The translations under genes were made by a program, and so were the position numbers. Below the pieces are notes generated by a model, which was given only the letters and a program-made list of their open reading frames with translations, ran no database searches and was not told the origin of the DNA. 64,000 bases of DNA from a virus, in the IMG/VR virus record IMGVR_UViG_3300044698_000251, positions 822 to 64,821 of that record; one strand, given 5' to 3'. Below, piece after piece: positions 3,966 to 30,947 of this stretch; positions within the stretch are counted from its first letter, which is position 1; the number at the start of each line of letters is the position of its first letter.

Positions 3966-3998
3966 CCGGAACCCGCCAGCCGCAACACGCCCGACAAT
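3966..3998 (+). promoter_or_regulatory. Late-promoter-like motif (variant), probably leaderless for terL
   Basis: CCGGAACCCGC-N16-GACAAT-N6-ATG(4005). Confidence 0.55.
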
Positions 3999-5967: not shown

Positions 5968-6000
5968 CCGGAATGATCTTCACTGTGCCGCTCCTACCCT
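5968..6000 (+). promoter_or_regulatory. Late-promoter-like motif upstream of portal
   Basis: CCGGAATGATC-N16-TACCCT, then GGGAG RBS and ATG 6034. Confidence 0.7.
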
Positions 6001-6033: not shown

Positions 6034-7806
6034 ATGGCCTGGTGGCATGCATTCAGTCGACGCGGCACCCCCACGCCCAAACCGCACACGCCCACACAAC
6101 CCAACGCACTCACCTCCGCCGCAGCCCCCGTCACCAGCCCCCGCACCGAACTCATCCGCAACACCGACGGCTGGCAAGAAGAAGCCTGGGGCTACCACGA
6201 GACGCTGGGCGAATTCCGGTACGCCGTCGACTGGGAAGCGAAGATGCTCTCCCGCGTCCGACTCTTCGCCGCCAAACTCGAACCCGGCGCCGACGAACCC
6301 GTACGCGCCGACGCCGGAACCGCCGTCGACCTCCTCACCAACATGGCCGGAGGCGTCGCCGGACAAGCCGTCATCATGGACGGCCTCGGCACCCAGCTGT
6401 CCGTACCCGGCGAGGGCTACGTCATCGTCGAAAACGTGAACGGCGTGGAGCGGTGGTCGGTGCGCTCCATCGACGAAGTCCGCGTCGCACGCGGCCGGTA
6501 CGAGGTGACCGACGAGAACGCCGTCAACGGCGCCAACATCTGGCGCCCCCTCGCACCCGACTCACTGAATCCGCTGCGCGTGTGGCGCCCGAACAAGCGC
6601 TACCACCACATCGCCGACAGCCCGGCCCGCGCGGCCCGCTCCACCATGCGCGAGCTGGAGCTCGTGAACCGGCACATCATCGCCCAGTACCTGTCGCGGC
6701 TCGCGTCGGCCGGGGTGGTGCTCTTCCCCGAGGAGATCACGTTCCCCGTTCGCGAGGAGTTCGCGGACGCCCCTGACCCGTTCATGGCCGAGTGGATCGA
6801 GATCGCATCCGAAGCCATCCGGACACCCGGTACAGCGGCAGGGATTGTCCCGCTCCCGATGAAGCTCCCGGGCGAGTGGATCGACAAGGTGAAGCACGTC
6901 GACTTCACCCTGAAGATCGACGAGAAGATCATCGAGAAGCGCGAGTCCGCCATCAAACGGCTCGCCTCCCAGCTGAACATCCCCGCCGAAATCCTCCTCG
7001 GCATGGGCGACGTTAATCATTGGGGGGCATGGCAACTGGAGGAGGGCGCCCTCAAAACCAACATCGCCCCCGAAGCCGAGCTGATCGCGCAGGCGCTTAC
7101 CACCGGCTACCTCCAGCCCCGGCTCCGGGCGTCCGGCGTCGAGGACTGGGCGAGCTGGGTCGTCTGGTACGACATGTCGGAACTCACCCTCCGCCCCGAC
7201 CGCTCCGACGACGCCATCGCCCTCTACGACCGGCTCGAACTCAACGGCACCGCACTGCGCCGCGAGACCGGCTTCGACGAGGCCGACAAGCCGACCAACG
7301 AGGAACTCAAGGAACAAGCCCTCAAGGTCATCATCCACACGCTGCCGTCCGGCGCCGGATCCGCCCTCACCGAACTCATCGGCGAACAGGTCACCATCGC
7401 CGCGACCGCGCCCATCGCCCCGGGCAAACAACCGGCGCCGGAGCCCCCACCGGAAGAGCGCACGCCACCCGATCCCGAAGCCGCCCGCGCAGTGACGGCA
7501 CAGGCCCGCGAAGACCGCATGGTCCGACAGTCCCGCGAACTACACGCCGTCAGGTTCACGGTCGGCCGGGCGCCGGATCTGCTGCACCCGGCCGGCTGTA
7601 CGCAGCACGCCTACAGCTGCCCGTTCACGCATGCCGTGGTGAAGCTCGACGCGCTGCCGCGCCCGGGGACGTCCGGGACGTACGAGGTGCGGCTCGACAC
7701 ATTCGGCCGTCTGGCGATCGGCCGGCTTGCCCCGCATCTGGATACGAGCGGGTTCCTGTCCACCTCTCCTCGGAGTTCCAATGGGTTCGCTCACAGCCGC
7801 GGCTGA
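6034..7806 (+). CDS. Portal protein
   Basis: Position after terminase; WQEEAWGY..GEFRY, VPGEGY, LGMGDVNHWGAWQ typical of actinophage portals. Confidence 0.85.
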   Translation: MAWWHAFSRRGTPTPKPHTPTQPNALTSAAAPVTSPRTELIRNTDGWQEEAWGYHETLGEFRYAVDWEAKMLSRVRLFAAKLEPGADEPVRADAGTAVDLLTNMAGGVAGQAVIMDGLGTQLSVPGEGYVIVENVNGVERWSVRSIDEVRVARGRYEVTDENAVNGANIWRPLAPDSLNPLRVWRPNKRYHHIADSPARAARSTMRELELVNRHIIAQYLSRLASAGVVLFPEEITFPVREEFADAPDPFMAEWIEIASEAIRTPGTAAGIVPLPMKLPGEWIDKVKHVDFTLKIDEKIIEKRESAIKRLASQLNIPAEILLGMGDVNHWGAWQLEEGALKTNIAPEAELIAQALTTGYLQPRLRASGVEDWASWVVWYDMSELTLRPDRSDDAIALYDRLELNGTALRRETGFDEADKPTNEELKEQALKVIIHTLPSGAGSALTELIGEQVTIAATAPIAPGKQPAPEPPPEERTPPDPEAARAVTAQAREDRMVRQSRELHAVRFTVGRAPDLLHPAGCTQHAYSCPFTHAVVKLDALPRPGTSGTYEVRLDTFGRLAIGRLAPHLDTSGFLSTSPRSSNGFAHSRG

Positions 7807-10800
7807 TGGCTCGCACATGTCTGGCGCGATGATCGCGTTGATGCCGACCGTGGAGGATGCGGCCCGGTTGGCGATCGAGGGCGGCGAGGCCGCGGATCAG
7901 CTGCACCTGACGCTGCGGTACCTCGGTGACGGCGCCAACTTCGACGAGGCCGCGCGTACCGCGATCGTCGACTCGGTGCGGATGCTGACGGAGGGCATGC
8001 CGCCGATCGTGTCGAAGATCTTCGGTGCGGCGCACTGGAACGGGGGCGGTGACGAGCCGTCGTGGGTGTGGTCCGTCGGCGACGATCCGGAGCGCGGCCC
8101 GTCGCTGGAGGCGGCGCACGGTATGGCGGAGGAGGCGCTACTGATGGCGCCCATGGATGTGGAAATTCCGGAGCCGCACACGCCGTTTGCCGCGCATATC
8201 TGTGCCGCGTACTCCGACGAGCTGGACCTCATCATCCCCATGGAGGAGCGGCTCGGCCCGGTCACTTTCGACCGAGTTCGGGTGGCGTTCGCCGGGGACC
8301 ACACCGACACCCCCCTTGGTGGGCCCGTCACGGCCGCAGCCGGGCCGCTGCGCCGTCGGCCCACCGAGTTGGAGCTCGCCTCCCGCGTCGACTTCGCGCA
8401 GATGGACAAGGCGTGGCATGAGGCCGTTGACGGCACGGTGGAGGCGTGGGCCAGCGTGCAGGAGGCGATGCGCGCCGAGGTCACCGCCAGCATCCAAGCC
8501 GCAGCTGAGGCCGACGACCTGGACCGGCTCGACGGCCTCGCCGTGGACACCGAGGACGGTTCCCGGCTCCTGATCGCCCGCATGATCGCCTACGCGCGGG
8601 AGGCAGGCGACGCACAGCAAGCTGAGGCCGAAGCCCAGGGCGTCACCGTCCCGGAGTGGTCGCTGGACGACGAGGCGCTCACTGCGGCTGCGATCCGTGA
8701 CCGGCTGCGGCAGGTCGGCCGTACTGTCGCGCGTGGCCTCGGGGTGGGACTGGTGCAGTCCGCGGTCCGGCAGGCGATGCGCGTGTGGGGCTCCGGTACG
8801 GCGCAGCAGGTGGCCGCGCAGGTGGATGAGCACCTTGCCGGGCTGTCGGGTGCGGCAGCTGAGGAGCAGGTCGGTGGGGCGATGAGCGTCGCGCAGAACG
8901 AGGGGCGCCTCGCGGTGCTCGCGGTCGCGCCGCCCGCCACGTACACAGCTTCGGAAATCTTGGACAAATCATCATGTAAGCCATGTCGTGACATCGACGG
9001 CACCGAGTACGACACCCTCACCGCGGCCCGCACCGCATACCCGTCCGGCGGCTACACGGGCTGCCTCGGCGGCTCGCGCTGCCGGGGCGCGTTGGTCACC
9101 GTGTGGCCGCAGGGCAGTGAGCAAGCCGCCGCCGGAATGATCTTGGCTGCGAGTGCGTCCACAATGCCGCCGACAAACCACGAAGGAGGCGGCGCCGTGC
9201 CGTACCGCATCGAGCAGGAGCACCCGGACTGCGGTGCCGACAAGCCGTACGCCGTGGTGAAAGAAGCCGACGGCGAGCTGATGGGCTGCCACGACAGCGA
9301 GGCCGCAGCCATGGAGCAGCAGGCCGCCCTGTACGCCGAGGAAGGCGACGACAAGCCCGCAGACGACGGCGACGACATGGACTATGCGGGCAAGACCGCC
9401 CCCTGGCGCGGTCCCCTCGCCATCGAAGGGCAAGTCACCGGCGACGGCCGCGAGTTCGCCCCCGACGCGCTCACCTGGGCCGAACTTCCCGTGCCGCTGC
9501 GATGGAACAAGGAAGACTCCCACGGCGGCGACCCGAAGACCGTAGCCGTCAACGTCGGCCGCATCGACAGCATCTGGCGCGACGGCAGCCTCATCATGGG
9601 CGAAGGCGTCCTCGACCTCTCCGACGACGACGGACGCAAGGTCCACGGCAAGATCCTCGGCAAGTTCCTCCGCGGCGTCAGCATCGACGCCGACTCCATC
9701 GCCGACGCCGACGTCGAATTCGTGTGGCCCGAAGACGCCAACGAGGGCACCGGAGACGGCGACGAGGGCGACCTGCTGGAGATGCTCTTCGCGCAGCCGG
9801 AGAAGATGATTTTCCACGGCGGACGCATCCGGGCCGCAACTCTCGTCGACATCCCCGCGTTCGCCGAGGCGTACATCGCACTCCTTGATGAGCAGGGGGC
9901 GGTGGTGGCCGGCGGCCAGCCGATCGGCGCCGAAGCGCTCCAGGCGCTGGCAGTGCAGGATCTGGGTGCGGTCGGCACCCACGACACGGCCACCTCCGAC
10001 GGGCCGTGGGACGTGGGCGTGAACGAGAAGCGCATCGACGGGCCGCTCACGCTGGCCAAGGCGCGGGCCGCATACGGCTGGTACGACGGCGGCGCGGTCG
10101 AGGACGGCGAACTGGCGAAGTCCGCGGCGAAGTTCCTCCACCACGAGATCAACGCCGACGGCACCGTGGGCCCGGCGAACTTGACCGCCTGCTCCTCTTC
10201 GATCGGTGCCTTGCACGGCGCCCGTGGTGGTACGTCCATTCCGGAGGCGGACCGGCGTGGCGTGTACGACCACGTTGCGGCGCATCTGCGGGACGCCGGG
10301 CGTGAGCCGGAGCCGTTCCGTTCCCTGCGTGCTGTCACCGCTGGCGCACCGGCCTCGCATCCGGCGATGACCGGCCTGTGGAAGCCGCCCGCCGAGTGGT
10401 TCAGTAACCCGGAGCTGCCGTTCTACTGCGGGATCGTTGTCACCGACCAGGGGCGCCTGTACGGGCATGCGGCACCGTGGGGGGCCTGCCACATCGGGTT
10501 CGACGGCGAGTGCGTCACTGTCCCGCGGGAGAACGAGCACTCGCACTACATGACCGGTGAGACGGTCTGTGACGACGGCTCGCGGGTGGCGGTCGGCCAG
10601 GTCACTGTCGGAACAGGGCATGCTCCGCTGCATTTTGGGGCGCAGCCTGCGGCGGAGCACTACGACAACACGGGCAGTGCGGTCGCTGATGTGGCGGTCG
10701 GCAACGACAAGCACGGCATCTGGATCGCGGGTGCGATCCGGCCGAACGCGGATCCGCTGAGCGTGTACGAGCTGCGGGCGTCGGGGCGGGTGTCGGGTGA

Positions 10801-11032
10801 CTGGCGGCGGATCGGCGGCCAGTTGCGGATGGTGGGGATGCTCGGCGTGAATGTGGCTGGGTTCCTGGAGGAGGCGAAGATGCGGACGCTGGTTTCTGCC
10901 GGGCGCCCGCAGGCGCTTGTGGCGGCTGGTGTTCCGAAGCAGCGGTGGGCGATGTCGAAGGACGAGTCGGAGCGTCAGGCGATGCGGATCGTGATGCGCA
11001 TGCTGTCCCGCCGCGTACACCCGGGGAGGTGA
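7781..11032 (+). CDS. 2H-phosphoesterase + MuF-like head morphogenesis + capsid maturation protease fusion (1083 aa)
   Basis: GGAG RBS; HLTLRYLG and FAAHICAAY (2H motifs); DKSSCKPC..CLGGSRCRG (MuF-like); EGQVTGDGREF, VSIDAD, ATLVDIPAF, SGDWRRIGG (protease region). Confidence 0.8.
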   Translation: MGSLTAAADGSHMSGAMIALMPTVEDAARLAIEGGEAADQLHLTLRYLGDGANFDEAARTAIVDSVRMLTEGMPPIVSKIFGAAHWNGGGDEPSWVWSVGDDPERGPSLEAAHGMAEEALLMAPMDVEIPEPHTPFAAHICAAYSDELDLIIPMEERLGPVTFDRVRVAFAGDHTDTPLGGPVTAAAGPLRRRPTELELASRVDFAQMDKAWHEAVDGTVEAWASVQEAMRAEVTASIQAAAEADDLDRLDGLAVDTEDGSRLLIARMIAYAREAGDAQQAEAEAQGVTVPEWSLDDEALTAAAIRDRLRQVGRTVARGLGVGLVQSAVRQAMRVWGSGTAQQVAAQVDEHLAGLSGAAAEEQVGGAMSVAQNEGRLAVLAVAPPATYTASEILDKSSCKPCRDIDGTEYDTLTAARTAYPSGGYTGCLGGSRCRGALVTVWPQGSEQAAAGMILAASASTMPPTNHEGGGAVPYRIEQEHPDCGADKPYAVVKEADGELMGCHDSEAAAMEQQAALYAEEGDDKPADDGDDMDYAGKTAPWRGPLAIEGQVTGDGREFAPDALTWAELPVPLRWNKEDSHGGDPKTVAVNVGRIDSIWRDGSLIMGEGVLDLSDDDGRKVHGKILGKFLRGVSIDADSIADADVEFVWPEDANEGTGDGDEGDLLEMLFAQPEKMIFHGGRIRAATLVDIPAFAEAYIALLDEQGAVVAGGQPIGAEALQALAVQDLGAVGTHDTATSDGPWDVGVNEKRIDGPLTLAKARAAYGWYDGGAVEDGELAKSAAKFLHHEINADGTVGPANLTACSSSIGALHGARGGTSIPEADRRGVYDHVAAHLRDAGREPEPFRSLRAVTAGAPASHPAMTGLWKPPAEWFSNPELPFYCGIVVTDQGRLYGHAAPWGACHIGFDGECVTVPRENEHSHYMTGETVCDDGSRVAVGQVTVGTGHAPLHFGAQPAAEHYDNTGSAVADVAVGNDKHGIWIAGAIRPNADPLSVYELRASGRVSGDWRRIGGQLRMVGMLGVNVAGFLEEAKMRTLVSAGRPQALVAAGVPKQRWAMSKDESERQAMRIVMRMLSRRVHPGR
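9132..9165 (+). promoter_or_regulatory. Intragenic late-promoter-like motif
   Basis: CCGGAATGATC-N17-CACAAT, then AAGGAGG RBS and in-frame GTG at 9197. Confidence 0.6.
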
Positions 11033-11038
11033 GAGCGA

Positions 11039-11101
11039 ATGTGCAGTTGCAATAAGAGGCGTCGTCCGGCACCCCCGCCGCCGCCCCCTCCAAGTCTCTG
11101 A
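11039..11101 (+). CDS. 20-aa Cys/Arg/Pro-rich micropeptide MCSCNKRRRPAPPPPPPPSL
   Basis: Strong GGAGGT RBS (11025-11030), ATG 11039, TGA 11099-11101; below ORF-track cutoff. Confidence 0.55.
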   Translation: MCSCNKRRRPAPPPPPPPSL

Positions 11102-11115
11102 CCTTTAGTTATGCG

Positions 11116-11167
11116 GTCCGGCCAACCTAATTGGACGTTGGCCGGACTGTGTGCTATGCGCTAGCCT
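11116..11167 (+). promoter_or_regulatory. Housekeeping-sigma-like promoter for capsid genes overlapped by an 11-bp inverted repeat
   Basis: TTGGCC(11138)-N18-TAGCCT(11162); GTCCGGCCAAC(11116-11126)/GTTGGCCGGAC(11137-11147). Confidence 0.5.
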
Positions 11168-11224
11168 TCGCAAACAAAGGGCGCCAAACCGCAAGGCGCA
11201 CACCCCTTCACAGCGGAGGACTCA

Positions 11225-12976
11225 GTGCCCGAGGAACTCTTCAGCGCCCCGTCCGACCTCACCCTCGTCAGCGACAGCGACCTCGCCGAACTCGAAACAC
11301 GCGGCGCAGCAGAGTTCGCCCGCATCGAACAGAACGACGTCGACCCCCAGTCCCTCGCCTACGCGACGACTCTCGCCGACGACCTCGACGCCATCCGCGC
11401 CGAACTCAAGGTCCGCGAAGTCCGCGCCCAGGCGAACTCCGACCTCCAGCGCACCCGCGTCGGCGAGAAGCTCGCCGCACTCAGGGAACGCGTCAACGGC
11501 ACCGACGGCCAGGGTGCGGCCAGCACCCAGACCGCAGCCCCCGTCGACACAGACGCCATCGCCGCCGCCGCCGCACAGGGCGTCGCCGCCGAGTTCGTCA
11601 AGATCTTCACCAGCGGGCGAGGCGGCAACGGCCTCGGCGCCGTCGCCAAGCGCGCCACCGCCTCCCTCGCCGAGACCGCGCAGCACGCGCCCGCGCCGAA
11701 GGTCCCCAACGCCAAGCTCGCCGTCACCGCCTCCGTGGACATCCCCGGCGTCGCCCACGGCGGGGAACTCCCCACCCTGCGCGCCCTCGCCGACGTCGTG
11801 TCCCGCAAGGCGAAGTCCATGCCGGTCACGCAGAACAACCCCAACCACCAGCTCGTCGCCAGCATTCGCAACGACTTCGGGCACACCATCGACGACCGCA
11901 CCAGCCCGGCGCAGGTCCGCGACCTCATCGACTTCCTCACCGGCCCCGACAAGCAGCAGGCGCTGGTGGCCGGCGGCGGATGGTGCGCCCCCTCCGAGAT
12001 CCGCTACGACTTCTTCAACATCGCCTGCGAAGACGGCATGATCGACCTCCCCACGTTCGGCGTGAGCAGGGGCGGCATCCAGTTCCCCGTCTCCCCGAGC
12101 CTCGCCGACGCCCTCGGCGGCGGCACCGCCTTCGCCGAATTCGCCGCCACCCTCTCCAACACCTCAACGCCGTTCCTGTGGACCGAAGCCGACGACATCG
12201 CCGCCGCCACCGGCTCCCCGACGAAGCCGTGCATCCGCGTGCCCTGCCCGGACTTCGACGAAGAGCGCCTGGAGTGCTACGGCTACTGCCTCACCGCGGG
12301 CAACTTGACCGACGACGCCTACCCCGAGGCCACGCAGCACATGCTGCAACTCCTCATGTCGGCGCACTCGCACGTCATCAACGCCCGCCTCATCGCGCTG
12401 ATGCTGCTTGGCTCCAGCGCCACCACCACCATCGGCGGCCAGACCGACGACTCCGCCGCACCCCGCATCTACAACGCGGTCGGCATGGCGGCCACCGACT
12501 ACCGCGCCAGGTTCGGTATGTGCATCGACGACGTCCTCGAAGTCGTCCTGCCGTACTGGGTCCGCGAAGTCATCCGCGCCGACCTCGCATGGAAGGCGGG
12601 CGTCGAACTGCCTGCCGTCTCCAACGCGGAGGTCGACTCGTACTTCGTGGCCCGCAACGTGCGCGTCCAGTGGGTCAACGACTGGCAGGTCCGCGGAGCG
12701 AGCCAGTTCGGCAACGCCACCCCCATGACCGCATGGCCGACCACCGTGGACTTCCTCATCTACGCGGCCGGCACGTTCATCCACGGCAACGGCCTCTCTC
12801 TCGACCTCGGCGTGATCCGCGACTCGGTTCTCAACGAGACCAACGACCACACCGCCGCCTGGTCCGAGGAATGCCACCTTGTCGCCCGCGTCGGCCACGA
12901 GTCCCGCCGCTACACCGTGCCGTTCAACGTCAAGGGCAGCACCGGCGCGATCCTCGGCGACGAAGCCCGCGTCTGA
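11225..12976 (+). CDS. Major capsid protein (hexamer-type, with N-terminal scaffold-like region)
   Basis: Coiled-coil N-terminus; ALVAGGGWCAPSE.RYDF, PTFGVSRGGI, LDLGVIRDSVLN.TND motifs of actinophage capsids. Confidence 0.9.
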   Translation: MPEELFSAPSDLTLVSDSDLAELETRGAAEFARIEQNDVDPQSLAYATTLADDLDAIRAELKVREVRAQANSDLQRTRVGEKLAALRERVNGTDGQGAASTQTAAPVDTDAIAAAAAQGVAAEFVKIFTSGRGGNGLGAVAKRATASLAETAQHAPAPKVPNAKLAVTASVDIPGVAHGGELPTLRALADVVSRKAKSMPVTQNNPNHQLVASIRNDFGHTIDDRTSPAQVRDLIDFLTGPDKQQALVAGGGWCAPSEIRYDFFNIACEDGMIDLPTFGVSRGGIQFPVSPSLADALGGGTAFAEFAATLSNTSTPFLWTEADDIAAATGSPTKPCIRVPCPDFDEERLECYGYCLTAGNLTDDAYPEATQHMLQLLMSAHSHVINARLIALMLLGSSATTTIGGQTDDSAAPRIYNAVGMAATDYRARFGMCIDDVLEVVLPYWVREVIRADLAWKAGVELPAVSNAEVDSYFVARNVRVQWVNDWQVRGASQFGNATPMTAWPTTVDFLIYAAGTFIHGNGLSLDLGVIRDSVLNETNDHTAAWSEECHLVARVGHESRRYTVPFNVKGSTGAILGDEARV

Positions 12977-18007: not shown

Positions 18008-18040
18008 CCGGAATGATCATGCGCGGGCGGTACCTACCGT
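18008..18040 (+). promoter_or_regulatory. Late-promoter-like motif, leaderless for tail assembly chaperone
   Basis: CCGGAATGATC-N16-TACCGT-N7-ATG(18048); no RBS. Confidence 0.75.
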
Positions 18041-18047
18041 CCACCCC

Positions 18048-18497
18048 ATGACCGACATCGCCGCCACCCCAACACCCATCATGGACTTCACCGAGGAACA
18101 CCAGCGCGTCCTCTTCCGCATCGACGACGACGTCTTCGAAGCCGCACGCGCCCTCCCCGGGAAAACCCTCGCCCGCTTCGCATCCCGCTTCGCCAACGTG
18201 GAGAAAGCCGGCCACGAGGAGCAGATCAACGCGATTGGCGACGCCCTCGGCCTAGTCCTCCTGCCCGACTCCAACGCCCGCTTCCAGAAACGGCTGGAAG
18301 ACCTCGAAAACCCCATCGGCCTGGAGCAGGCCGGACGCATCATCGAGTGGCTTATGGAGCAGTACGGCCACCGCCCTACCGAGCCGTCCTCGGACTCGTC
18401 CACTGGGCCAGCCAGCCCGGTATCTGGCACGAGCTCGACGGACGCGCAGCCGCAGCCGGTATCGATCCCGGCGACCTTCCAGCCGACCGCTTCCTGA
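18048..18497 (+). CDS. Tail assembly chaperone
   Basis: Immediately upstream of tape measure; ends ..YGHRPTEPSS.. Confidence 0.75.
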   Translation: MTDIAATPTPIMDFTEEHQRVLFRIDDDVFEAARALPGKTLARFASRFANVEKAGHEEQINAIGDALGLVLLPDSNARFQKRLEDLENPIGLEQAGRIIEWLMEQYGHRPTEPSSDSSTGPASPVSGTSSTDAQPQPVSIPATFQPTAS

Positions 18498-25551: not shown

Positions 25552-25584
25552 CCGGAACGATCATGTCCGGGGGGTGCCTACCGT
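25552..25584 (+). promoter_or_regulatory. Late-promoter-like motif, leaderless
   Basis: CCGGAACGATC-N16-TACCGT-N7-ATG(25592). Confidence 0.75.
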
Positions 25585-25591
25585 CCCCTCC

Positions 25592-25945
25592 ATGGCCCAA
25601 CTCCTGACAGCCGCAGCCCGCGCACGGGCCAGAGTCAACCACGGCAGGTGGATCGCCGACTGCCCGCGCCCCTACTGCGCCAACGCCGTCAAACTCGGCC
25701 CCCGCCAGGGCACATTCCACTGCGCGGGCGAAGGCGGCTGCCAGATGATCGCCGAGATTGAATGGCCCGGCGACGCCGACGGCATCTGGCAGGCACTGCT
25801 GGAGCGCCCGGTGCCCACCACCAGGAACTGGTACCCGCCCGAGCATGACGAGGCGGTGCGCCTCGGAATCCCCCACGGGCAGACACCGGCCGACCTGCGC
25901 GCGGAACACCGCGAGCACGATGAAGCCGCCGGGCTGGTGGGGTAG
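25592..25945 (+). CDS. Cys-rich hypothetical protein
   Basis: NHGRWIADCPRPYCANA, FHC..GGC, RNWYP. Confidence 0.65.
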   Translation: MAQLLTAAARARARVNHGRWIADCPRPYCANAVKLGPRQGTFHCAGEGGCQMIAEIEWPGDADGIWQALLERPVPTTRNWYPPEHDEAVRLGIPHGQTPADLRAEHREHDEAAGLVG

Positions 25946-29576: not shown

Positions 29577-29869
29577 GCAGTCCCTTGGACGGACGGATCC
29601 GCTCCATCGCCCGCGAGGAAGCCACCGCTCTCCTCGGCGTCCCCGGCGGGGTGCAGTCGGTGGCCGGTTCGGCGCCGACTGCGGAGCAGCTGCAAGAGCA
29701 GATCACCTACCTGCACGAACACCTGCACCTGGCGGCTACCAAGCTCAGCAACGCGGAGGAGCGCATCCGTGCGCTGGAGAAGGCGGCCGGGCATGCGGAG
29801 TCGGAGGAGCGGCCGACGGCACGGCGGACGCCCCGCAAGACGGATAGGGGTGCACCCGCTCCGGAATGA
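29573..29869 (+). CDS. Coiled-coil hypothetical protein
   Basis: ATGA coupling; heptad LQEQITYLHEHL..AEERIRALE. Confidence 0.6.
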   Translation: MSSPLDGRIRSIAREEATALLGVPGGVQSVAGSAPTAEQLQEQITYLHEHLHLAATKLSNAEERIRALEKAAGHAESEERPTARRTPRKTDRGAPAPE

Positions 29870-29893
29870 TCTACGCCGGGCGGCTCTTACCGT
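29861..29893 (+). promoter_or_regulatory. Late-promoter-like motif, leaderless for glycosyltransferase
   Basis: CCGGAATGATC-N16-TACCGT-N7-GTG(29901). Confidence 0.75.
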
Positions 29894-29900
29894 CCGGCCC

Positions 29901-30947
29901 GTGAAGACCCTCGTGTACCCGTCAGATTCCTTCGGCTGCGGCTCGTTCAGGGCGATCTGGCCTGGCGGACTCCTCGCTGCCGCCGGGCATGACGTGGAGG
30001 TGGTGCGCCAGAAGGACCGGCGCGTCCGCCTCGTGATGGAAGGCAACGCGGTCAAGGACGTCCTCGTCGACGCCGACGTCGTCGTACTCCAGCGGGTCAC
30101 GCACGCCTATATGGCGCAGGCTGTCGGTGTGATGCGGGCGAAGGGCGTCACGGTGGTTGTCGACGTGGATGATGATCTGTCGTCGATTCATCCGTCGAAT
30201 CCGGCGTGGGCTGTGCACCGGCCGGGCGCCGGGCTGCATTCGTGGCACAACCTGGCGCTCGCCTGCCGGGAGGCGTCGCTGGTGACGGTGTCGACCCCGG
30301 CGCTGCTGGACGTGTACGCCCGTCACGGGCGCGGGCATGTGCTGCCGAACTATCTGCCGGACCAGTACTACGGGCTGCCGCGTACGGACTCCGACGTGAT
30401 CGGCTGGCCGGGCTCAATCCACTCGCATCCGAATGATCCGGAGGTGGTGGGCGGGGCGGTCGCCCGGCTCGTAGATGAGGGCGCCGAATTCGTGATGCGC
30501 GGTGACTCGACGGGCGCCGGGCGGGCGTTCGGGCTGGCTGCGGATCCGGCGGGTGGCGGGGTGCCGATCGAGGAGTGGCCGCAGTCGGTGGCCTCGTTGG
30601 GGATCGGGATTGCCCCGCTTGCGGACACGAAGTTCAACAGGTCGAAATCGCATTTGAAGCCGCTGGAGATGTCAGCCTGCGGTGTGCCGTGGGTGGCGTC
30701 GCCGCGTGCGGAGTACCGGCGGCTGCATGTGATGGGTGCGGGTGTTCTCGCTGACCGGCCGCGTACGTGGTATCGGGAGTTGAAGCGGCTGCGGGAGTCG
30801 GCTGCGCTGCGGGCGGAGTTGTCGGAGGCGGGGCGTGCGGTGGCCGAGCAGCTCCGGCTACGGGATCACGCCTGGCGTTGGGCCGATGCCTGGCAGCGGG
30901 CGTACGAGATGCAGCAGGCTACGCCGCGCACGGCGGTCCCGGCGTAG
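29901..30947 (+). CDS. Glycosyltransferase, GT-B fold (family 4-like)
   Basis: DVVVLQR, VVVDVDDDL, VTVSTPAL, VLPNY, IGIAPL....FN.SKS.LKPLEMSACGVPWVAS. Confidence 0.85.
   Translation: MKTLVYPSDSFGCGSFRAIWPGGLLAAAGHDVEVVRQKDRRVRLVMEGNAVKDVLVDADVVVLQRVTHAYMAQAVGVMRAKGVTVVVDVDDDLSSIHPSNPAWAVHRPGAGLHSWHNLALACREASLVTVSTPALLDVYARHGRGHVLPNYLPDQYYGLPRTDSDVIGWPGSIHSHPNDPEVVGGAVARLVDEGAEFVMRGDSTGAGRAFGLAADPAGGGVPIEEWPQSVASLGIGIAPLADTKFNRSKSHLKPLEMSACGVPWVASPRAEYRRLHVMGAGVLADRPRTWYRELKRLRESAALRAELSEAGRAVAEQLRLRDHAWRWADAWQRAYEMQQATPRTAVPA

Follow-up and report, generated by a model that had tools for sequence, protein, structure and literature searches.

We analysed a 64,000-nucleotide (nt) window of viral DNA (positions 822 to 64,821 of record IMGVR_UViG_3300044698_000251), which belongs to an IMG/VR viral contig of 70.9 kb and around 69% G+C, and focused on a long head gene that carries a second possible translation start within its own reading frame. 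All coordinates refer to the window and the features of the locus lie on the + strand. The gene spans positions 7781 to 11032 (1,083 codons plus stop) and joins a 2H phosphoesterase, a MuF-like part, a linker and a prohead-protease region. Its frame is open from position 7727, but the likely start is the ATG at 7781, which aligns with the conserved M-xSLTAAADGSH of related proteins and overlaps the end of the portal gene (6034 to 7806, stop at 7806). The gene order is portal, fused open reading frame (ORF), a 20-codon ORF rich in Cys and Pro, and the major capsid gene (11225 to 12976), whose product has a long N-terminal extension.

PHROG profiles split the fused protein into three parts, which are 2H-like (amino acids 21 to 198 of protein P0001), MuF-like, and the protease region (amino acids 524 to 1091). 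No Pfam family matched the whole fused protein at E 0.1, and a megablast search of the fused gene against cultured phages returned no match; the closest cultured relatives are only 31 to 46% identical at the protein level. The 2H-phosphoesterase-like module (7787 to 8320; phrog_2659, E 8e-30) has HLTL as its first motif and HICA as its second. The latter is of the form HxC in most relatives and HxT in a few, where HxT/S is expected, and the Pfam families LigT_PEase and 2_5_RNA_ligase2 match this module weakly in 5 out of 24 relatives. The MuF-like minor head module (8327 to 9106; phrog_595) ends in CxxC...RCRG..VTVW. Pfam Phage_Mu_F (PF04233) gives it 14.4 bits against a cut-off of 29.6 (E 0.067; E 0.0016 in the best relative). 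Its label comes from homologues annotated as MuF-like in cultured actinophages, and the gene position after the portal agrees with it. A linker of 30 low-complexity codons follows (9107 to 9196), which is translated in the long form and holds a promoter-like motif and a Shine-Dalgarno (SD) sequence.

The nested ORF begins at the GTG at 9197 to 9199 and ends at 11032 (611 codons plus stop), sharing both frame and stop codon with the long ORF and encoding a protein made of the protease region. The SD sequence AAGGAGG (9183 to 9189) lies 7 nt before the GTG. Further upstream, CCGGAATGATCT begins at 9132. The promoter-like motif is composed of the -35-like element GGAATGATC (9134 to 9142) and, after a gap of 17 nt, the -10-like hexamer CACAAT (9160 to 9165), with a predicted transcript start at about 9172 to 9173. 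The internal start signals therefore occupy the stretch that separates the conserved end of MuF from the beginning of the protease-region protein. A preliminary description of the window had reported the SD sequence and the in-frame GTG within the 1,083-codon ORF, at the boundary between MuF and protease. Every one of its coordinates holds, and the boundary takes the form of the linker between the two parts.

The pairing energy between SD and anti-SD at GTG 9197 is -11.8 kcal/mol, which ranks first among the 667 internal in-frame ATG and GTG codons in the high-GC3 open frames of the window. Approximately 2% of these background starts reach -9.1 kcal/mol. The rank alone is unconvincing because the margin over the second codon is small. 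The mRNA around the internal start is among the least structured (rank 6 of 181 sequence windows, mean of 41 relatives), which is weakly consistent with initiation at this position.

To describe the product of the nested ORF we relied on structural models and profile searches. The AlphaFold model of the 611-residue protein has a mean predicted local distance difference test (pLDDT) score of 62, with confident N-terminal and middle domains. The N-terminal mini-domain (amino acids 1 to 49; 9197 to 9343) consists of three strands and a helix, with invariant Cys12 and Gly30-Cys31 and a pLDDT of about 90. The separate proteins of some relatives and the nested ones alike begin with this conserved mini-domain, and to judge from this comparison the ancestral protease gene had its N-terminus here. 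The next domain (amino acids 65 to 255; 9389 to 9961) resembles the prohead serine proteases, with a probable fold of the assemblin and T4 gp21 type. Compared to T4 gp21 (5jbl), it gives Z 7.1 and a root mean square deviation of 2.9 Å over 111 aligned residues, in a part of the model where pLDDT is 40 to 77. Against herpesvirus proteases it gives Z 4 to 5.4. Both comparisons come from a second look at the model, the route to the only usable match with a protease fold: in a Foldseek search, the 611-residue model had no match at E <= 0.001, and the matches to protease folds lay at E 0.05 to 0.5. His109 (in EDSHGG) and Ser162 (in RGVSID) are invariant in 32 sequences, and from the position of the motifs we infer that they are the catalytic residues. 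Pfam Peptidase_S77 matches 17 of the 32 members, all below the cut-off (best E 0.00049), PHROG families annotated as protease match the protease region strongly, and profile searches of both protein halves against the PDB returned nothing useful. The fold match, together with the invariant His and Ser, therefore indicates that the short product contains the protease. Downstream lies a conserved C-terminal domain (10379 to 10921; phrog_18402 and phrog_29860) with many invariant residues and a low-confidence model without fold match, which corresponds to the part called 'capsid maturation protease' in annotation of the SEA-PHAGES type. It is preceded by a domain of about 115 residues that is modelled with confidence (9989 to 10321, amino acids 265 to 375; HxTATSD...KFxHHE...GALHGARGG) and is absent from about a third of the relatives.

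Conservation of the internal start signals

By scanning viral contigs we collected 80 related loci. We considered a locus as fused when the frame was open for 300 to 700 codons upstream of the protease region, as is the case in 58 of the 80, and these reduce to 44 non-redundant sequences at 93% nucleotide identity, window included. The aligned start codon is GTG in 34 and ATG in 10 of the 44, with no exception; ordinary columns in which all sequences encode Val are split about evenly between GTG and GTC. An SD sequence with a pairing energy of -8.9 to -12.2 kcal/mol is found in all 44. The motif GGAAYGATC-N17-CACAAT is kept in 37 of them, with its first base 60 to 66 nt before the start. In these 37 relatives both elements are near-invariant and the sequence of the spacer varies. 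The upstream element is conserved at >=90% at eight of nine bases, the variable position being the T/C one. The distance between the -10 element and the start is only 28, 31 or 34 nt, therefore the linker has been kept in frame. All motif-bearing loci with enough upstream sequence are fused.

A sliding measure of synonymous identity did not single out the junction, as codon bias inflates this measure everywhere. In its place we looked for alignment columns where a rare codon, defined as one with less than 12% usage, is the majority codon. In these genomes GGA accounts for 7.7% of Gly codons, ACA for 6.8% of Thr codons and TTG for 6.9% of Leu codons. Among 780 well-occupied codon columns, a rare codon is the majority one in only 10, and five of the 10 fall between 9125 and 9188: GCA, GGA (upstream element), TTG, ACA (-10 element) and GGA (SD). 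The probability of finding five of them within a stretch of 22 codons is about 4e-6, according to a rough binomial estimate against a uniform distribution. Two further columns (GGA AGG, 11024 to 11029) are the conserved rare codons that form the SD sequence of the next small gene, and serve as a built-in positive control. In 39 out of 40 sequences the Thr codon in the -10 element is the rare ACA, and the SD sequence is encoded by the rare GGA together with GAA, a minority codon that accounts for 27% of Glu codons. Across the gene, the major base at third codon positions has a mean frequency of 0.75, and only 14.5% of these positions are conserved at >=97%. Given this divergence, the conservation of the signals reflects selection on the nucleotides rather than on the low-complexity peptide.

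The 80 loci also include 14 where the two parts are separate genes, with a stop 0 to 43 codons upstream and a second gene that starts at a homologous M-P-Y. The preliminary description had suggested looking in related phages for a stop just upstream of 9197, and such a stop is thus found. In the separate-gene relatives the MuF gene stops three to five codons after VW, at most a few bases separate it from the next gene, and there is no linker. Compared with this layout, the fused clade has therefore lost the stop and has added a linker that carries control signals. We built a maximum-likelihood tree of the protease-region protein, which 10 of the 14 separate-gene loci were complete enough to enter. 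The separate-gene forms are basal and the fused forms compose one clade of 41 and one long-branch outlier; since the tree is midpoint-rooted, the direction of the change is itself inferred. These data suggest that the fusion arose through stop loss between two once-separate genes, and that the start signals were then kept by selection.

Genome assemblies contain 10 related loci, eight of them in Streptomyces. In three (L085, in S. caniscabiei NE06-02D; L086, in Streptomyces sp. NPDC093591; and L087, in Streptomyces sp. 549) the ORF is fused and motif, SD and start are all present. Another three (L088, L089 and L092) have SD and start without the motif. The remaining two (L090 and L091) have a different N-terminal segment, yet carry a strong SD and an ATG just after the end of MuF. 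The prophage relatives L085 to L092 also include S. iconiensis DSM 42109, S. africanus NRRL B-24243 and several Streptomyces sp. The presence of these prophages in isolates establishes Streptomyces as the host genus and a temperate lifestyle for this type of phage, and it excludes that the fusion is an artifact of metagenome assembly.

Among cultured phages, gp12 of Streptomyces phage Xkcd426 (locus L082) is annotated as a fusion of MuF and protease. As in the window, MuF-like, 2H and prohead-protease modules lie in one gene directly after the portal. Unlike in the window, their order is MuF-2H-protease and there is no N-terminal mini-domain. In gp12 the protease domain is preceded, at a distance of six codons, by an in-frame ATG whose SD sequence is weak.

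Copies of the promoter-like motif

The window has five strict copies of the pattern GGAAYGATC-N14-19-YANNNT, compared to 0.08 expected from shuffled sequences, and all five are on the + strand. The motif that had been reported at 9132 to 9165 is one of them. The preliminary description had listed seven copies; five of these conform to the strict pattern, and we left out the other two, at 3966 and 32203, as degenerate. Three copies (18010 to 18048, 25554 to 25592 and 29863 to 29901) have the hexamer TACCGT after a 16-nt gap, and a start codon without SD exactly 8 nt past the hexamer (ATG, ATG and GTG, respectively). In actinobacteria the -10 element has the form TANNNT and leaderless genes are frequent (PMC3898074). 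The genes after these three copies are predicted to be leaderless late genes, and this geometry is good indirect evidence that the motif acts as a promoter. The other two copies precede starts with an SD sequence. One, at 5970 to 6000 (GGAATGATC-N16-TACCCT), is followed after 34 nt by the portal ATG at 6034. The second is the internal copy at 9134, which has CACAAT after a 17-nt gap and is followed after 32 nt by GTG 9197. The canonical motif before the portal, approximately 3,250 nt upstream of the internal start, is carried by the phages that keep the internal motif and is conserved in about 25 relatives. The copy at 5970 probably drives a long mRNA that includes the fused gene. We also considered reading GGAAT...CGT as a promoter of an extracytoplasmic function (ECF) sigma factor, and dropped it as the 23-nt spacing does not fit the one generally known for ECF promoters.

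A probable two-product gene and alternative readings

The start codon, the SD sequence and, in most cases, the motif have been kept across the fused clade by means of rare codons. On this evidence, it is likely that the locus is a nested two-product head gene of a temperate Streptomyces phage, encoding a 2H-MuF-protease polyprotein and a separately started 611-residue protease. The conservation thus supports the two-product interpretation that was put forward in the preliminary description.

Several observations weigh against it. The internal -10 region (CACAAT, 17-nt gap) differs consistently from the canonical TACC[CG]T with a 16-nt gap, and the hexamer keeps A2 and T6 of TANNNT without its T1, hence it falls outside that pattern. 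Moreover, a scan of positions 7000 to 12000 for sigma-70 sites (E. coli-type consensus TTGACA-N17-TATAAT, >=9 of 12 bases, spacer of 16 to 18 nt) found none. The motif, with no match to TTGACA/TATAAT, is therefore specific to the phage. Seven of the 44 fused relatives have no promoter motif and still keep SD and start, which implies that the promoter is dispensable for the nested start and that the start is conserved independently. A fused sub-clade without the motif has a linker that is shorter and quite different. In addition, all counts overstate the number of independent cases because the relatives share ancestry. The Xkcd426 fusion, which lacks a strong internal SD, indicates that the fused protein alone can suffice. 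Finally, the role of the long form in delivering cargo and the cleavage sites, both described below, are conjecture.

The motif might serve only to boost the downstream capsid and tail genes, with the nested protease as a by-product encoded by the first cistron and devoid of any stoichiometric role. The motif is indeed placed just ahead of a block of abundant structural genes, and its next copy is at 18010. Furthermore, portal and MuF are low-copy proteins, as known for gp6 and gp7 of SPP1. We nevertheless regard this explanation as improbable. The seven fused relatives without the motif retain SD and start, which shows that the start is conserved apart from the promoter. In any case, such a boost overlaps with the two-product interpretation and does not exclude it.

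An equally improbable alternative is that SD, GTG and motif are leftovers of a recent fusion, and that only the full-length polyprotein matters, from which the protease would cleave itself out. The relatives with separate genes do show that the junction is a former gene boundary, and Xkcd426 illustrates that a single fused product may be enough. This part of the fossil junction that had been proposed earlier therefore stands. The fossil, however, does not appear to be dead. While third codon positions have diverged to the extent reported above, the start and the SD sequence are preserved in 44 of 44 sequences and the motif in 37 of 44, through codons that are otherwise rare. Moreover, the loci L090 and L091 have replaced the N-terminal segment and still have an SD sequence with an ATG. 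The suggestion that a stop codon between genes that are really separate in this phage was lost through an error of sequencing or assembly can be set aside almost with certainty, as nothing speaks for it beyond the existence of separate-gene relatives, an open frame is shared by 44 non-redundant contigs, which come from many metagenomes, and by assemblies of Streptomyces isolates with prophages, and the length of the linker in motif-bearing relatives differs only by multiples of three.

Known nested genes and a possible mechanism

Nested in-frame expression is already known in capsid-maturation modules, namely gp17/17.5 of the archaeal virus HFTV1, lambda and herpes simplex virus 1 (HSV-1) (bioRxiv 10.64898/2026.09.13.751334). 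The herpesvirus pair UL26/UL26.5 resembles the window locus in having a short in-frame ORF that shares its 3' end with a long one, and probably in the assemblin-type fold of the protease (PMC11565193). There, the short ORF has its own promoter inside the long ORF and its product is made in excess, the short transcript being approximately 10-fold more abundant (PMC11565193); in the window, a promoter-like motif predicted from the sequence takes the corresponding place. This motif is of bacterial type and lies within a translated linker. The two systems differ also in what is nested. In herpesviruses the scaffold is the short product, and the long product fuses protease and scaffold. Here the protease domain is within the short product and the long one adds MuF and 2H, so that the locus departs from the division into a short scaffold and a long protease with scaffold. 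Lambda C/Nu3 and HFTV1 gp17/gp17.5 are likewise nested in-frame head-assembly genes with an internal translation start, where nesting sets the ratio of two proteins with a shared C-terminus (bioRxiv 10.64898/2026.09.13.751334). They rely on internal initiation on one mRNA and their nested product is the scaffold, whereas the window locus has a conserved promoter-like motif as well and its nested product appears to be an enzyme.

Fusions between MuF and protease are also known. In Microbacterium cluster EG the gene is annotated as 'capsid maturation protease and MuF-like fusion protein' (PMC7302621). We found no nested start described in published accounts of these actinophage fusions. Furthermore, MuF can be fused to toxins, as in the MuF-VIP2 of Microbacterium clusters EH and EJ, and the enzymatic module of such fusions is predicted to end up inside the virion (PMC7302621). 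As in those fusions, MuF here would carry a variable enzymatic module, since the N-terminal module varies among the relatives. Unlike in those fusions, the cargo is N-terminal to MuF and the whole is also fused to the protease. Nested genes and MuF-protease fusions having been described before, what seems to be new at this locus is that the nested product would be an enzyme and not a scaffold, with the cargo as its extension.

A possible course of events is the following. The mRNA from the portal promoter at 5970 would be translated into low amounts of the full-length 1,083-residue polyprotein, and ribosomes may also initiate internally on this long mRNA, at GTG 9197. A second transcript, starting at about 9172 with a leader of about 24 nt, would have the 611-residue protease protein as its first cistron. 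With this transcript, the abundant capsid and tail genes would also be transcribed more strongly, as far as the next promoter at 18010. The short form would supply the bulk of the protease. In the long form, capsid targeting by the protease region would carry a few copies of MuF and of the variable cargo, such as 2H, into the procapsid, where cuts at the recurring [LVI]T|A[AGS] sites may set the cargo free. The fusion has six occurrences of [LVI]TA[AGS], compared to 0.45 expected, and they lie at module borders (7790, 8327, 8480, 8678, 9017 and 10334). The same pattern is found once in the capsid gene, at 11723 (KLAVT|ASVDIPG), where the border of the N-terminal extension is expected. This distribution suggests, as a lead to follow, that these are candidate cleavage sites of the maturation protease.

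We propose more tentatively, as a possibility that we do not favor outright, that the absorbed intergenic control region now has a dual role. It would link an exchangeable cargo (MuF with, for instance, 2H) to the protease and at the same time launch a separate protease transcript. In this way it would set a low ratio of cargo to protease and package a few copies of a possibly anti-defence enzyme. If true, this would be the reverse of the nested logic of herpesviruses and lambda.

In automatic annotation the fused gene has a single product. Should the nested start prove real, an entire clade of temperate phages and prophages of Streptomyces produces a 611-residue protease protein that goes unannotated, and the true dose of protease differs from that of the fusion. 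The nested design also suggests how enzymes packaged in virions could be dosed. A phage promoter-like motif with both leaderless and leadered targets is potentially useful in Streptomyces genetics. The rare-codon test offers a simple way to spot regulatory signals hidden in the coding sequence of high-GC genomes.

Other features of the locus concern the modules at either side of the junction. The module ahead of MuF is polymorphic: most relatives have 2H, four (L009, L013, L018 and L024) have no such module, and in L012 it is replaced. In one of these relatives (L013, 695 to 2806), an intein (Pfam Intein_splicing, E 2.4e-10) is inserted at the Cys of the S-C-xPCR motif at the C-terminus of MuF and adds approximately 390 codons to the fused ORF. 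Within the 2H module of the window, an in-frame ATG at 8144 is preceded by the strong SD-like sequence GGAGGAGG (-11.4 kcal/mol, rank 3 of the 667 internal starts). Finally, the small Cys/Pro-rich ORF downstream of the protease region (11039 to 11101) is kept in relatives between the protease and capsid genes.

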